From a candidate division WOR-3 bacterium (GTDB lineage: Bacteria; Hydrothermota; Hydrothermia; LBFQ01), in contig JBDRWW010000001.1 of NCBI GenBank assembly GCA_039802605.1, forward strand, positions 256,001-320,000: a stretch of DNA of 64,000 nt. Reading direction: 5' to 3'. The notes beneath the pieces were generated by a model, which saw only the letters and a list, made by a program, of their open reading frames with translations, did not search any database and had not been told where the DNA came from. Positions 45,905 to 52,437 of this stretch are shown piece by piece. Each line of letters begins with the position of its first letter. Within the stretch, counting starts at the first letter, position 1. The translations under genes were made by a program, and so were the position numbers.

Positions 45905-45977
45905 GGCGGCCGTAGCTCAGCGGTAGAGCACCAGACTGTGGCTCTGGGGGTCGCGGGTTCGAATCCCGTCGGCCGCC
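45905..45977 (+). tRNA. tRNA-His (anticodon GTG) with encoded G-1; CCA not encoded
   Basis: G-1 + GCGGCCG/CGGCCGC + C73; anticodon arm CCAGA-CTGTGGC-TCTGG; T-loop GTTCGAAT. Confidence 0.95.
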
Positions 45978-45979
45978 CT

Positions 45980-46954: not shown

Positions 46955-47630
46955 CATAATCCCACACCTTGAAGAACTCAGGAATAGAATAATACGGGCT
47001 TTTCTTATATACGCCTTAGTTTCGGTTATAATGTGGTTTTTTCACGATTATGTTATAAGGTTTATATCCCAACCCGTTGGGAAGCTGTACATTTTTAATG
47101 TTCAGGATGCCTTTATGCTTAGGTTAAAGGTTTCATTAATGTCTGCCCTGTTTATATGTCTCCCATACTTTGTTTTGGAAATTTGGGGTTTTATATCCCC
47201 AGCACTCTATCCCAACGAAAAACTCGCCGTAGGGCTTATTCTCATTTCAACCCTTGTACTTTTTTACTTAGGCGCATTTTTGTCCATTTTTGTGATATTA
47301 CCCAGGGCGGTTGTTTTTCTACTTTCTTTTTCTTCTGGATTTCAGACCATAATAGGCGCAAACCAATATTTGGACTTTATATTTTGGAGCACATTGATAT
47401 TCGGAGTTTTATTTGAACTTCCGGTCGCGGTGGGTATATTGGCAAGATTAGGGATAATAAACAGCAAGTTATTAACCAAGAGGCGTAGGGAGATGATAGT
47501 GGGTATAGTCATAGTGGCGGCGGTAATATCCCCTACCGTAGATGCTTTTAGCCTTATAGCAATGTCTTTACCTTTAATATTGTTGTATGAAATCAGTATA
47601 TGGGTGGCCAAGGTTGTTGAAAAGAAATAA
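46941..47630 (+). CDS. tatC: Twin-arginine translocase subunit TatC
   Basis: HLEELRNR, WGFISPALYPNE, FELP and LYEISI motifs. Confidence 0.95.
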   Translation: MDWNNIIPHLEELRNRIIRAFLIYALVSVIMWFFHDYVIRFISQPVGKLYIFNVQDAFMLRLKVSLMSALFICLPYFVLEIWGFISPALYPNEKLAVGLILISTLVLFYLGAFLSIFVILPRAVVFLLSFSSGFQTIIGANQYLDFIFWSTLIFGVLFELPVAVGILARLGIINSKLLTKRRREMIVGIVIVAAVISPTVDAFSLIAMSLPLILLYEISIWVAKVVEKK

Positions 47631-47634
47631 TTTA

Positions 47635-47646
47635 CAACCTTAGAAT
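47635..47646 (+). promoter_or_regulatory. Putative extended -10 promoter CAACCTTAGAAT of the Uma2 array (representative of a recurrent motif)
   Basis: The same motif precedes many operon-leading genes, e.g. at 1610, 22546, 25472, 39889, 49874. Confidence 0.65.
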
Positions 47647-47657
47647 ATAAAACGAAT

Positions 47658-48212
47658 ATGGAGGTTTATTCAAGGGAAAAGGTTTGGACATATGAGGATT
47701 ACTTAAAACTTGAAGACGATAAGCGTTATGAGGTTATTAACGGGAGGTTGGTAGAAATGCCCGCGCCGGGTTTTGAACATCAAAAGGTTTTAAATGCCAT
47801 AAACTTGAAGATTTACACTTTCGTGTTGGAAAAGGATTTTGGCGAAATTGTCCCATCACCCTTTGATGTTATATTATCCGAGGATATCGTAGTTCAGCCG
47901 GATATAGTTTTTATATCCAAAGATAACTTGAAAAACATAAGAGAAGGCCGTTTGTTTGGCGCCCCGGACATGATTGTTGAAATAGTATCGCCAGGTAGTT
48001 ATAATAGGGATAGGTATGAAAAATTCAAAATATATGAAGAGTTTGGTGTTAAGGAGTATTGGATAGTTTTACCCGGTGAAAAGGCGGTGGAGGTGTGGGT
48101 TTTGGGTGAGAAGGGAAAATATGAACTTTACTCCTTTGCGGAAAAAGAGGGGAAGGTTAAAAGCAAAGTTTTAGAAGGCTTAGAAATTGATTTAAAGGGG
48201 GTGTTTGGATGA
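47658..48212 (+). CDS. Uma2/DUF820 family PD-(D/E)xK endonuclease, copy 1
   Basis: TYEDY..L...RYEVING, HQ, QPDI, PD..VEIVSP and GVKEYWIV motifs. Confidence 0.92.
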   Translation: MEVYSREKVWTYEDYLKLEDDKRYEVINGRLVEMPAPGFEHQKVLNAINLKIYTFVLEKDFGEIVPSPFDVILSEDIVVQPDIVFISKDNLKNIREGRLFGAPDMIVEIVSPGSYNRDRYEKFKIYEEFGVKEYWIVLPGEKAVEVWVLGEKGKYELYSFAEKEGKVKSKVLEGLEIDLKGVFG

Positions 48213-48763
48213 ATACGGAAGTTAAGGAAAAAGTTTGGACTTATGAGGATTATTTAAAACTTGAAGATGATAAGCGTTATGAGGTTATTAACGGGAGGTT
48301 GGTAGAAATGCCCGCGCCTACTCCTTGGCATCAGGATATTTCAAGGAATTTGTTATTTCTACTTTGGGGATTTGTTAAGGGCAAAGACTTGGGTAAAATA
48401 TACCACTCTCCCATAGATATAGTGTTAAGAGAAGATGTGGTATTACAACCCGATATAGTTTATATTTCAAAGGAAAAACTCGGGATAGTAGGGGAGAAAG
48501 CGGTAAATGGCACGCCGGACTTGGTTGTAGAAATAGTTTCGCCATCAACGGCACGGAGGGATACGGTAGTTAAGAAGGGGATATATGAAAATTTTGGTGT
48601 TAAGGAATATTGGATTGTTTATCCCGATGAAAAGGCGATAGAGGTATGGGTTTTAAATGAAAGCGGAAAATATGAACTTTATTCCTTTGCAGAAAAAGAG
48701 GGGAAGGTTAAAAGTAAAGTTTTGGAAGGCTTAGAGGTTGATTTAAAGGAGGTGTTCGGATGA
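48209..48763 (+). CDS. Uma2/DUF820 family endonuclease, copy 2
   Basis: Same motifs; ATGA overlap with copy 1. Confidence 0.92.
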   Translation: MNTEVKEKVWTYEDYLKLEDDKRYEVINGRLVEMPAPTPWHQDISRNLLFLLWGFVKGKDLGKIYHSPIDIVLREDVVLQPDIVYISKEKLGIVGEKAVNGTPDLVVEIVSPSTARRDTVVKKGIYENFGVKEYWIVYPDEKAIEVWVLNESGKYELYSFAEKEGKVKSKVLEGLEVDLKEVFG

Positions 48764-49311
48764 AGGAAATGGTTAAGGAAAGGATTTGGACTTACGAGGA
48801 TTATTTGAAACTTGAAGACGATAAGCGTTATGAGGTTATTAACGGGAGGTTGGTAGAAATGCCCGCGCCGGGTTTTGAACATCAGAAGATTTCGGGCTTA
48901 ATAGACTTTATATTGCGGAAATTTGTCTATAAAGAGCGCATAGGGGAAGTTTTATATGCCCCCTTTGATGTAATACTTTCGGAAAATATCGTAGTTCAAC
49001 CGGATATAGTTTTCATATCAAACGAAAATCTGAAAAACATAAAAGAAGGGCGTCTTTTCGGTCCTCCGGACTTGGTTGTGGAAATAGTATCTCCGGGCAG
49101 TTATAAGAGGGATAGATTTGAAAAGTTCAAGATATACGAGGAATTTGGGGTTAAAGAGTATTGGATAGTTTTACCGGGCGAAAAGGTAATAGAGGTTTGG
49201 TGTTTGAAGGAAGGTAAGTATGTTTTACACTCCATAGCCGTTGAAAAGGGGGAGGTTGAAAGCTGCCTTTTAAAGGGTTTAAAGGTAAAAGTTGAGGAGG
49301 TGTTTAAATGA
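48760..49311 (+). CDS. Uma2/DUF820 family endonuclease, copy 3
   Basis: Same motifs; ATGA overlap; distinct C-terminus. Confidence 0.92.
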   Translation: MKEMVKERIWTYEDYLKLEDDKRYEVINGRLVEMPAPGFEHQKISGLIDFILRKFVYKERIGEVLYAPFDVILSENIVVQPDIVFISNENLKNIKEGRLFGPPDLVVEIVSPGSYKRDRFEKFKIYEEFGVKEYWIVLPGEKVIEVWCLKEGKYVLHSIAVEKGEVESCLLKGLKVKVEEVFK

Positions 49312-49859
49312 AAGTGGATGTTAAGGAAAAAGTTTGGACTTACGAGGATTATTTGAAACTTGAAGATGATAAGCGTTATGAGGTTATTAACGGGAGGTTG
49401 GTAGAAATGCCCGCGCCGGGTTTTGAACATCAGGATATTCTTACCGAGCTGATTTTAAAATTTAAAGTTTTTACTAAGGAGAATACTTTGGGAAAGGTTA
49501 TTCCCTCCCCATTTGATGTAATACTCTCGGAAAGTGTTGTCGTTCAACCCGACATAGTTTATATATCAAAAGAAAACCTGAAAAACATAAAAGAGGGTCG
49601 CTTATTCGGGGCTCCGGACTTGGTTGTAGAAATAGTTTCGCCATCAACAACGAGGAGGGATACGGTTGTCAAGAAGGGGATATATGAAAATTTTGGTGTT
49701 AAGGAATATTGGATTGTTTATCCCGATGAAAAGGCAATAGAGGTGTGGGTTTTGGGTGAGAAGGGAAAGGAGGGTTATGAACTTTATTCCTTTGCCGAGA
49801 AAAAAGTTAAAAGCAAGGTTTTAGGAGGCTTAGAGGTTGATTTAAAGGAAGTGTTTTAA
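49308..49859 (+). CDS. Uma2/DUF820 family endonuclease, copy 4
   Basis: Same motifs; ATGA overlap; mosaic of the other copies. Confidence 0.92.
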   Translation: MKVDVKEKVWTYEDYLKLEDDKRYEVINGRLVEMPAPGFEHQDILTELILKFKVFTKENTLGKVIPSPFDVILSESVVVQPDIVYISKENLKNIKEGRLFGAPDLVVEIVSPSTTRRDTVVKKGIYENFGVKEYWIVYPDEKAIEVWVLGEKGKEGYELYSFAEKKVKSKVLGGLEVDLKEVF

Positions 49860-49893
49860 TATCAAAATCCCTTCAACCTTATAATTTTCACCC

Positions 49894-52437
49894 GTGAAAT
49901 CAAAGGAAATTAGGAAAGTTTTTTTGGAGTTTTTTAAAGAAAGGGGGCATACCATTGTTCAATCTTCCCCACTATTACCGCCAGACCCCACGCTCTTATT
50001 TACAAATGCTGGGATGAACCAGTTTAAACCCTATTTTCTCGGGGAGATGGAACCCCCTTTCAAAAGGGCGGCATCCGTACAAAAATGTTTAAGGGCGGGT
50101 GGGAAACATAACGACTTGGATAATGTGGGATTTACGAGAAGGCACCACACATTTTTTGAAATGCTCGGTAATTTTAGTTTTGGGGATTACTTTAAAAAGG
50201 AGGCCATTGTTTGGGCTTGGGAACTTTTAACGGGAGTTTTCAAAATACCCAAGGATAGATTGTGGATAACCGTGTACGAGGAGGATGAGGAGGCTTATAG
50301 CATTTGGAAGGATGAGGTTGGAGTAAGCCCCGATAGAATTATAAAAATGGGCGCCAAGGATAACTTTTGGGAAATGGGCGATGTCGGTCCATGCGGTCCA
50401 TCTTCCGAAATAATTTACGATTTGGGAGAAGAATCCGACCCAAATCAAAAAACCCCAAAGGATGAAGGTGAGAGGTTCTTGGAGTTGTGGAATCTCGTTT
50501 TTATGCAGTTTAACCGCAAAGCGGATGGTAGTTTGGAACCCCTACCCAAAAAGAACATAGATACCGGCATGGGTTTGGAGAGAATAGCATCGGTTTTGCA
50601 GGGTACATACTCCAACTACGAAACGGATCTGTTTATGCCGATAATAAACTTTATAGAGGATATAACTGGGGTTAAATACACATATGAAACCGGAGCCCCC
50701 CATAGGGTTATAGCAGACCATACAAGGGCATTGGTTTTTGCAATATCTGACGGTATATACCCTTCAAATTTTGGCAGGGGTTATGTTTTGAGGAGGATTT
50801 TGAGGAGGGCTTACAGGTTTGCCCAAAAGTTAAATGTGGCGGAGCCAATAATTTATAAGGTGGCGGATGTCGTAGCGGATATTATGGGGGATGTATATCC
50901 CGAGGTAAGGGAAAACATTAAAACGATCAAGGAGATTATTAAAAACGAAGAGGAAAGGTTTTTGAATACACTCGGCAGGGCTATTCCGGTTTTAATTGAA
51001 AGCCTTGAAAACGCAAAAGAAGGGGGTATATTGGACGGTAAGACGGCTTTCACCCTATATGACACATATGGTATACCCCAGGACATGATAGACGACTGGG
51101 CAACAACTTATAAAATAAAAATTGACTGGCAGGGATTTTGGGAGGAGATGGAAGATGCAAAGGAAAGGTCAAGGGAGAGCGCAAAGTTTAAGCTCTTAGT
51201 GCCCGAGTGGTTAAAAGTTTCCGAGGATTACACGGGTTCAAAGTTTGTTGGGTATGATAATTTGCGATGGAAATCGCGAGTTGCAAAAATAGGTAAAATA
51301 AACAATCTGGATGCATTGGTATGTTTTGAAACACCTTTTTACCCAGAAGGTGGAGGGCAGGTAGGTGATGTGGGGATTATTAAGGGCAAGACTTGGGAAT
51401 TTAAAGTTGAGGATACGAAAAGGATAGGAATGGATATCATACATTACGGGAAATTAAAGGGAAGCGTAGATATCGGGGATGAATGTGATCTGTTGGTTTC
51501 CGAAAAGGAAAGAAATGCGGCAAGAAGGGCGCACACTTCAACACACCTCCTTCACGCATCTTTAAGGGCCATTTTGGGTCATCATGTAAGGCAGCAGGGT
51601 TCTTTGGTTGAAAGGGAGAGGTTGAGGTTTGACTTTTCCCACCCAAAACCCCTATCCGATGAGGAAATAAATGAAATTGAAAACCTGGTAAACGAGAAGA
51701 TAAGGGAAAATATTCCGGTTTCACAGGAGTACAAACCTTATAGGGAGGCGGTAAGAGAAGGGGCCATTGCCATTTTTGAGGAAAAATATGGCGAAATAGT
51801 TAGGGTTATAACCATTGGGGATTTCTCAAAAGAACTATGCGGGGGAACACATGTCGATAGAACCGGGGACATTGGGGTTTTCATTATAACAAAAGAGGAA
51901 AGCGTATCAGCCGGGACCAGGAGAATAGAGGCATTGGTTGGTGAGAGGGCTTTAAAGTATATCCAAGAGCATAGGGATATATTAAAGGCTTCGGCCGGAT
52001 TACTCAACACCGGTATCAAGGATTTGCCGAAGGTGATTAACAAACGCTTGGAGGAGTATAGGCAACTTGAAGGGGAACTCAATTCAATTTACGATAAACT
52101 TGCGGAAATATACGCCGAAAGGGTTAAGGTTATGGATAAGGGGGAATTTAAGGTTATATATGGAATTGCGCCACTACCAAAGGATGCCCTTAGAAGGGTT
52201 GGGGATAAGGTATCGGAGCCCTTGGGAATAACCGTTCTCGTGTCGGAACATCCAAAGGATAGGGGTTTTATACATATCAGAATAGGGAACGGATTAAACG
52301 GGAAGGTATCGGCAAAGGAGATAATTTCAAAGATAACAAAGGAGTTAGGAGGGGGAGGGGGTGGAAGCGATGTTAAAGCCGAGGGGAAAATAAAGGATGT
52401 TAAAGGGCTTGAAAAGGTTTTGAAGGGTGTGATATGA
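49894..52437 (+). CDS. alaS: Alanine--tRNA ligase
   Basis: LLFTNAGM, HHTFFEMLGNFSFGDYFK, DTGMGLER, HTSTHLL and ELCGGTH motifs. Confidence 0.98.
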   Translation: MKSKEIRKVFLEFFKERGHTIVQSSPLLPPDPTLLFTNAGMNQFKPYFLGEMEPPFKRAASVQKCLRAGGKHNDLDNVGFTRRHHTFFEMLGNFSFGDYFKKEAIVWAWELLTGVFKIPKDRLWITVYEEDEEAYSIWKDEVGVSPDRIIKMGAKDNFWEMGDVGPCGPSSEIIYDLGEESDPNQKTPKDEGERFLELWNLVFMQFNRKADGSLEPLPKKNIDTGMGLERIASVLQGTYSNYETDLFMPIINFIEDITGVKYTYETGAPHRVIADHTRALVFAISDGIYPSNFGRGYVLRRILRRAYRFAQKLNVAEPIIYKVADVVADIMGDVYPEVRENIKTIKEIIKNEEERFLNTLGRAIPVLIESLENAKEGGILDGKTAFTLYDTYGIPQDMIDDWATTYKIKIDWQGFWEEMEDAKERSRESAKFKLLVPEWLKVSEDYTGSKFVGYDNLRWKSRVAKIGKINNLDALVCFETPFYPEGGGQVGDVGIIKGKTWEFKVEDTKRIGMDIIHYGKLKGSVDIGDECDLLVSEKERNAARRAHTSTHLLHASLRAILGHHVRQQGSLVERERLRFDFSHPKPLSDEEINEIENLVNEKIRENIPVSQEYKPYREAVREGAIAIFEEKYGEIVRVITIGDFSKELCGGTHVDRTGDIGVFIITKEESVSAGTRRIEALVGERALKYIQEHRDILKASAGLLNTGIKDLPKVINKRLEEYRQLEGELNSIYDKLAEIYAERVKVMDKGEFKVIYGIAPLPKDALRRVGDKVSEPLGITVLVSEHPKDRGFIHIRIGNGLNGKVSAKEIISKITKELGGGGGGSDVKAEGKIKDVKGLEKVLKGVI

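Follow-up and report, generated by a model that had tools for sequence, protein, structure and literature searches.

In-frame, N-terminally truncated isoforms that bind the full-length protein, regulating or completing it, are familiar from the Tn5 transposase and its inhibitor and from the long and short forms of McrB. Uma2 nuclease genes, which exceed 2% of the genes in some genomes, have had no settled function since 2005 and were earlier labelled selfish elements or solo toxins for want of a linked antitoxin or methylase. Here we describe four tandem Uma2 genes lying between tatC and alaS in 64,000 nucleotides of a candidate division WOR-3 bacterium (hereafter the window: positions 256,001 to 320,000 of contig JBDRWW010000001.1, assembly GCA_039802605.1), each of which appears to carry a conserved internal start for a second, shorter protein.

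The closest described system is Rpn (YhgA), a gene-within-gene toxin-antitoxin (Zhong et al. 2023, 10.1101/2023.05.02.539157; Koonin, PMC10400984). The two have in common a PD-(D/E)XK nuclease, tandem arrays, a patchy distribution, an internal Shine-Dalgarno (SD) site with an in-frame start, a variable helix in both forms and stand-alone short genes; of these, the conserved SD and start are present here as a sequence signature. Uma2 is nevertheless a different family, and the Rpn family (PF04754) had no match in the source genome (G000, 90%-complete; G001-G010 are relative genomes, X numbers metagenome runs and L numbers fetched loci). In the available text of the Rpn paper (10.1101/2023.05.02.539157), RpnS is a small C-terminal tail with its own promoter and without the catalytic domain, whereas the Uma2 short form would comprise 82% of the protein and keep the active site; variation lies in repeat number in Rpn and in old alleles in Uma2 here. 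The same text names Cas10d/Cas11d as an internal-start isoform pair, and this pair, Tn5 and McrB are multi-domain proteins with known partners and no allele library, unlike Uma2 here.

The described members of Uma2/DUF820/COG4636 (PF05685; PDB 1WDJ, 3OT2, 6OKH, 9Y1L) share with the window genes their fold, the H-PD-EXX-K motif, lineage expansion, paralog cassettes and the lack of a linked methylase or antitoxin. The motif with its migrated lysine, the proliferation and a four-gene tandem (Feder and Bujnicki 2005, PMC551604) and the paralog cassettes (Makarova 2009, PMC2701414) appear in the available portions of those papers, and the array and its mosaic structure are an ordinary, already known habit of the family. 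What sets the present copies apart is that nearly all lie within segment-trading arrays; moreover, the available text of the same two papers mentions neither an internal start nor a short isoform, nor a dimer helix specific to each allele. No description of an internal start in Uma2 was found in the literature searched, mostly openly readable texts without supplements, and both that start and the self-complementary helix described below appear new.

Uma2 was the sole Pfam match of the four window copies (122-127 bits against a gathering cut-off of 27). In the source genome, five arrays (4, 5, 2, 2 and 2 genes) contain 15 Uma2 copies in all, and each array stands amid housekeeping genes. Uma2 matches were found in 14 of the 31 genomes searched, and within the same taxonomic family nine relatives had 3-36 copies and two had none (57% and 89% complete). 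From seven genomes we fetched 39 loci, which cover part of their arrays and contain 128 Uma2 open reading frames (ORFs); 103 near-full-length main-clade copies were kept and 25 dropped (17 of a divergent clade and 8 partial or broken). In the aligned copies the catalytic site is retained (H41 99/100, D82 100/100, E108 100/100, K122 99/99), and the four window genes keep all four residues. The predicted fold is TT1808-like with an N-terminal subdomain (predicted local distance difference test, pLDDT, 89) and matches 6OKH, 9Y1L, 1WDJ and 3OT2 at Z 19.6-27.2, most closely 6OKH (Z 27.2, root-mean-square deviation 1.6 Å).

The evidence for a second product lies in the anchor, a segment near the N-terminus in which an SD site, GGGAGGTT, stands 8 nt 5' of an in-frame Met34 that is ATG in 100/103 copies from the seven genomes. 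The codons spelling the site are fixed (G29 GGG 102/103, R30 AGG 102/102, L31 TTR 103/103), whereas the top codon at other conserved residues accounts for 38/101 at G62, 37/103 at G101, 30/100 at G153 and 33/103 at R23, and codons 32, 33 and 35, which flank the motif, vary freely. By way of background, GGGAGGTT encodes 7 of the 115 G-R-L strings in long ORFs of the source genome, where GGAGG precedes 63 of 5600 internal Mets. Scored against a generic 16S tail, the SD outperformed its synonymous recoding in 100/100 ATG copies (-11.5 to -12.8 vs -5.4 to -6.1 kcal/mol), as compared with 53/106 control Mets; the source genome's own 16S tail is complementary to the SD and has the same CACCTCC core as the generic one. 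At the codon level, the aligned copies showed neither a conserved internal promoter nor a slippery site. One copy of the source genome that lacks Met34 and the helix also lacks the SD (n=1), and genes for the short form alone are found in G002 and on a Bacillus plasmid. With SD codons and ATG so fixed, each gene probably makes both a 184-aa and a 151-aa protein. As side observations, the 16S tail in this taxonomic family reads GAACACCTCC, not GATCACCTCC (G000:C3 near 81976; L260-L262), and the junction SD of copy 3, AAAGGAGGTGTTC, pairs with the family tail over 13 bases. In G002 (L025:3110-3565) the first array gene is short-only and starts at the Met34 position, 9 nt past a -10 box.

Similar signals recur farther afield, where three other lineages have GGAGGT ahead of this start in two further codon registers. 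In the divergent clade, AGGAGGT stands 7 nt 5' of the ATG in another codon register in 17/17 copies, with a gain that is modest against the clade's own codon bias. Hydrogenobacter has GGGGAGGT 7 nt 5' of the ATG in 5 of the 8 paralogs shown, a Bacillota genome has GGAGGT or GGGGGT 9 nt 5' of an ATG, GTG or TTG in 5/9 paralogs, and three Thermoanaerobacter copies have weak SD sites. Across two independent sets of distant relatives the Met is kept in 73/90 and 74/93 sequences, by far the most Met-rich column, with a strong SD at 31/73 and 31/74 of them against 3/126 and 6/154 control Mets. Where Leu or Val replaces it, TTG or GTG is used in 11/15 cases (3.95 expected; 7/11 once duplicates are pruned) and 6/8 cases (2.3 expected), while neighbouring codons use TTG or GTG in 12/88 and 21/86, at or below chance. 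Both chains of 9Y1L resolve 151-153 of 188 residues, and chain B aligns from residue 36, just past the homologous Met34. On these sequence signatures, translation of the short form (S) in this lineage is very probable.

Helix 1, predicted to be continuous (H39-59), has the character of a surface that would pair with its own counterpart in another chain. Of the 13 positions 44-56, ten are hydrophobic in most copies, and the variable-face positions 49-51 and 53 are hydrophobic in 52-73%. With similar helices removed beforehand, which removes relatedness only partly, charges at positions 47 and 57 were opposite rather than same by 23:2 among 61 near helices, and by 21:2 and 23:2 in sets of 85 and 78, with both polarities represented (family-wise error rate <=0.001). 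Residues ten apart on one continuous helix cannot touch, so this complementarity fits pairing between two chains. Weaker non-local charge pairs were seen at 43-53, 46-53, 47-53, 50-57 and 51-57, against a control helix that reaches only r -0.26. The position sums of the covarying pairs (96, 99-100, 104 and 107-108) recur with helical periodicity, the pattern to be predicted of an antiparallel homodimer, and we infer that helix 1 is likely to form such a dimer. The covariation lies within one chain and points to self-pairing instead of the free hetero-oligomers envisaged in the sequence-only reading, an earlier interpretation of the window from its letters alone. In the available text of PMC2779905, nine self-interacting Synechocystis proteins carry DUF820 and two paralog pairs interact by yeast two-hybrid. 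A two-copy homodimer prediction (alignment A3) scored 0.01, which speaks neither for nor against a dimer, and a single-sequence fold of the short form, at pLDDT 42, is uninformative.

That reading had also taken the helix segment for an actively hypervariable region in a combinatorial generator of nucleases, a view that the comparison did not support. We found 57-73 helix classes among the 103 copies, and the helix is a library of old alleles under purifying selection, shared across genera, not a mutational hotspot. Helix dN/dS, from Nei-Gojobori counts on similarity-chosen pairs that bias it somewhat low, was 0.21 (23/29 reciprocal nearest pairs, closer than 0.30); with the scored codon left out it was 0.20 overall, and the most variable face by itself gave 0.14. 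Two genera carry an identical helix peptide, with 6 synonymous and 0 replacement changes, although tatC synonymous sites are saturated between them (proportion of synonymous differences, pS, 0.77), which indicates horizontal transfer. As for a diversity-generating retroelement, the 90%-complete genome had no reverse transcriptase match (PF00078; no template-repeat search was made), and the helix alleles are conserved, not hypermutated.

The gene conversion that had been proposed is, on the other hand, real, and it acts between arrays as well as within them. A pairwise homoplasy index (PHI)-type test gave P 0.002-0.003 for the window, G000 and G003 each (P 0.002 at best), trees of four segments (41 copies) rejected one another (approximately unbiased, AU, P<0.003), and identical tracts of 65-77 bases link copies of one array as well as copies of different arrays. 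Homogenisation per genome affects the frame but not the helix: the nearest neighbour lies in the same genome for 72/103 copies at the anchor and 81/103 at the C-terminus, as opposed to 16/103 at the helix (chance 15%). The downstream modules had been described as two-state and reassorted. Mosaics do occur, copy 4 among them, yet there are three states and they are mostly co-inherited; the three linked subtypes account for 42, 23 and 17 of 100 copies (82/100 in the three commonest patterns), with a recombinant minority that includes copy 4. The module subtypes are ancient. The 50-bp block said to be invariant is exact in all four window copies but in only 5/14 full-length copies of the source genome. 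Among the window copies it is far beyond chance: no equally long run arose in 20000 codon shuffles (0/20000), and identical degenerate codons number 15/15 inside against 29/72 outside (P 1.4e-5); beyond the SD and ATG, the identity is recent conversion.

Taken together, these observations would fit an array belonging to a library of nuclease modules spread across the genome, in which one gene yields two proteins, a reading to which, as a whole (L and S modules, cognate helix pairing, S as dominant-negative), we assign a probability of about 0.55. The long form (L, 184 aa) would be made from the annotated start and S from the conserved internal SD-ATG at Met34; S would lack the N-terminal helix-plus-hairpin subdomain and retain the core. 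Helix 1 would pair antiparallel with a second copy of itself and, being in both isoforms, could pair S with its own L. If each allele has its own self-complementary surface, S would mainly bind its cognate L and may restrain it as a dominant-negative partner, as in Rpn, while the alleles would insulate paralogs from one another; gene conversion would even out the frame per genome, and selection would keep alleles distinct and move them between arrays and genera. By analogy with Rpn, inhibition of L by S seems somewhat better than an even bet. The likeliest role would be toxicity triggered by stress or phage. The window copies match the hidden Markov model of the PADLOC defence candidate PDC-S03 (E ~1e-45 to 1e-48), a likeness that consists in this match; PDC systems are untested candidates, and PDC-S03 is unnamed in the available main text (Payne et al. 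2024, 10.1101/2024.01.29.577857). From this match and the Rpn analogy, an anti-phage role can be proposed only tentatively. We would be equally cautious in suggesting that Uma2/DUF820 is a second, more widespread 'antitoxin within toxin gene' class, in which a near-full-length isoform controls the nuclease via an allele-specific antiparallel helix and arrays are horizontally traded, insulated defence libraries. If true, a built-in short isoform would explain why no partner is linked and how dozens of copies are tolerated, a cloned native Uma2 gene may co-express its own inhibitor, as happened with Rpn, and the published question of internal-start regulators beyond Rpn would be answered. The internal start and the self-complementary helix make the function of the large Uma2 family directly testable.

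Several points weigh against this explanation. Among the near copies 3/103 lack the ATG, and of the distant loci 18/167 lack any start-capable codon and only 64/167 combine a start with a strong SD; S is therefore not obligatory family-wide. In the distant sets the SD exceeds the null only slightly (-6.2 vs -5.6), a single mutation separates TTG or GTG from ATG, a closeness that can inflate the replacement test, strong SD sites show no enrichment in loci with several copies (7/13 vs 33/93, P 0.23), and the relatedness of copies and genomes means that P values are overstated. Chain B of 1WDJ resolves 152/187 residues, as against 150 from the homologous Val38 start, so that short chains can also arise from an N-terminus that is flexible or clipped, and the crystals are not proof; in 6OKH (both chains) and 3OT2 chain A the N-terminus is resolved. 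Unlike RpnS, S retains all four catalytic residues, and the arrays lie outside defence islands, amid housekeeping genes.

The retained active site leads to the nearest competitor, in which L and S are both made and pair via helix 1 but S is no antitoxin: the L:S heteromer would be the enzyme, in the manner of Cas11d with Cas10d, or S would be active and the N-subdomain of L would act as a lid, either auto-inhibitory or for targeting. This scheme fits the SD and covariation evidence equally well, and S, with H41, D82, E108 and K122, covers the entire nuclease core (model residues 38-174), for which type IIG and HsdR nuclease domains give alignments. Yet G002 has a short-only gene with intact catalytic residues as the first of an array, immediately after the promoter, which makes S by itself look harmless, and T11, Y12, D14, Y15, E25, I27 and G29 of the N-subdomain are 75-97% conserved in distant relatives, which suggests that L needs them; we regard the heteromer or active-S scheme as unlikely.

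Fainter still is the prospect that the copies are selfish or near-neutral paralogs under ordinary concerted evolution, with GGGAGGTT either frozen by accident or serving at the DNA or RNA level as an element for recombination or pausing, and with the old divergent helix escaping conversion. Such an account has precedent in the available descriptions of proliferation, a four-gene tandem (PMC551604) and paralog cassettes (PMC2701414), and would suit the range of 0 to 36 copies within one taxonomic family, the several broken copies and the arrays at synteny breaks; it sits poorly with an SD motif that holds a distance of 7-9 nt to the start codon across three codon registers while codons beside it remain free, and with helix alleles that are under purifying selection and have crossed genera as an identical peptide. 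The least probable, in our judgement, is the original proposal that recombination actively builds a combinatorial, hetero-oligomeric repertoire in which the helix sets substrate or phage-protein specificity. It would draw on the real mosaics, the many helix classes, the differing array content in sister species and the two interacting paralog pairs (PMC2779905, available text). The same alleles recur in four studies, however, at dN/dS 0.2 with subtypes mostly linked and no reverse transcriptase found in the 90%-complete genome; 47/57 complementarity within a chain is predicted by self-pairing, not by binding of a foreign partner, and the largely hydrophobic variable face is unlike a DNA-reading helix.

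The features of the array are collected in Table 1.

Table 1. Positions in the window of the Uma2 array and its predicted elements.
Feature	Position	Strand	Basis or remark
Promoter-like site TTGAAA-18-TAGAAT	47617..47646	+	consensus match; copy 1 long start 11 nt past -10 box, no SD (short-leader or leaderless)
Uma2 copy 1, long form, 184 aa, FE/RLF/RDRY subtype	47658..48212	+	ORF, PF05685
Uma2 copy 2, long form, 184 aa, PW/KAI/DTVV subtype, ATGA-overlap coupled	48209..48763	+	ORF, PF05685
Uma2 copy 3, long form, 183 aa, FE/RLF/RDRY subtype	48760..49311	+	ORF, PF05685
Uma2 copy 4, long form, 183 aa, recombinant (FE/RLF front, DTVV back)	49308..49859	+	ORF, PF05685
50-bp four-way identical block	47718..47767, 48269-48318, 48820-48869, 49368-49417	+	SD and ATG fixed; remaining identity from recent gene conversion
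Internal SD GGGAGGTT and in-frame ATG (Met34), copy 1	47742..47759	+	predicted short form 47757-48212, 151 aa
Internal SD and ATG, copy 2	48293..48310	+	predicted short form 48308-48763, 151 aa
Internal SD and ATG, copy 3	48844..48861	+	predicted short form 48859-49311, 150 aa
Internal SD and ATG, copy 4	49392..49409	+	predicted short form 49407-49859, 150 aa
Allele-specific helix 1 and next strand (residues 43-67), copy 1; putative self-pairing interface	47784..47858	+	sequence comparison, predicted fold
Allele-specific helix region, copy 2	48335..48409	+	
Allele-specific helix region, copy 3; related alleles in sister-genus genomes	48886..48960	+	
Allele-specific helix region, copy 4; in G002 same allele sits in a different array	49434..49508	+	
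alaS promoter-like site, TATAAT 8 nt 5' of GTG; array end marker	49856..49885	+	consensus match

Most of the layout given by the sequence-only reading held: four Uma2 ORFs between tatC and alaS, three ATGA overlaps with GGGGGTG or GGAGGTG upstream in the preceding tails, and all quoted peptides were found as described, and the 65-bp tract shared by copies 2 and 4 (48572-48636 / 49671-49735) and the 29-bp tract shared by copies 1 and 4 (48090-48118 / 49740-49768) are exact. The single promoter it had assumed is a consensus match. An assembly artefact, which it had named as grounds for refutation, is ruled out: unique pieces of copies 1, 3 and 4 occur in contigs of four runs from four studies, with 0 differences and at about flank depth, except for one copy-4 piece in X8 with 2 differences. 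Unique pieces of copy 2 are listed in 3/4 runs, and X12 has one uncovered copy-2 bin, which proves nothing. These runs are labelled hot-spring or unspecified metagenomes. Contigs give no gene order, and their joints are explained by paralogs in unitig graphs and are informative on neither chimeras nor order; the unchanged pieces at flank depth in four studies mean that the array is real and its alleles stable in those populations. In the RNA runs X19 and X20, only 0.06-0.11 of words were present.

No DNA methyltransferase lies beside the array, as had been noted, and the neighbours of all five arrays are housekeeping genes; a restriction-modification system was rejected on both grounds. A box like CCTTAGAAT or CCTTAAAAT stands 5' of all five arrays of the source genome. 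Target-site duplication was rejected as an explanation of the flanking CCTTAGAAT and CCTTATAAT boxes, which resemble ordinary -10 elements in a genome with many leaderless genes. A leaderless look is common there: 311/985 long ORFs have a -10 box 6-9 nt 5' of the start and 170 have SD-like sites, with alaS (window 49880-49896) and the first genes of some arrays as examples. A sigma70-like 11/12 match within copy 1 only (window 47977-48005) is probably chance. Directly 5' of asd is a tRNA-His (45906-45978), and of the other four arrays in the source genome, three likewise have tRNA genes at their borders.

Wherever sister species were compared at a shared site, their array content differed, and the tatC site is without Uma2 in G001, G003 and G004. 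In the Uma2-free G001 and G004, waaA is directly 5' of a gene that in G000 and G002 follows a different array; arrays thus coincide with rearrangement points, synteny being broken elsewhere too. Genes adjacent in Uma2-free relatives (L055, L056, L017, L018) flank different arrays in G000 and G002 (G000 C12, C17, C5), which suggests rearrangement through the arrays. The divergent Uma2 clade is interspersed with the main clade in arrays of G003, G006, G008, G009 and G010 (L031, L035-L052), and none was found in G000. Truncated or internally deleted copies lie at array ends in L001 and L002 (the first copy of G000 C5 and both copies of C2). A small gene, perhaps HEPN/paREP1-like, is present in three copies in the source genome (C4:78423-78767, C5:79161-79505, C11:20775-21116) and sits 5' of alaS in G003. 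A search for longer homologues yielded 4 proteins among the 8000 candidates scored. One of these, P0004, naturally joins a diverged short-type Uma2 domain to a full-length one in tandem, evidence too weak to build on, and in P0002 the Uma2 domain sits behind a long helical-repeat-like domain.

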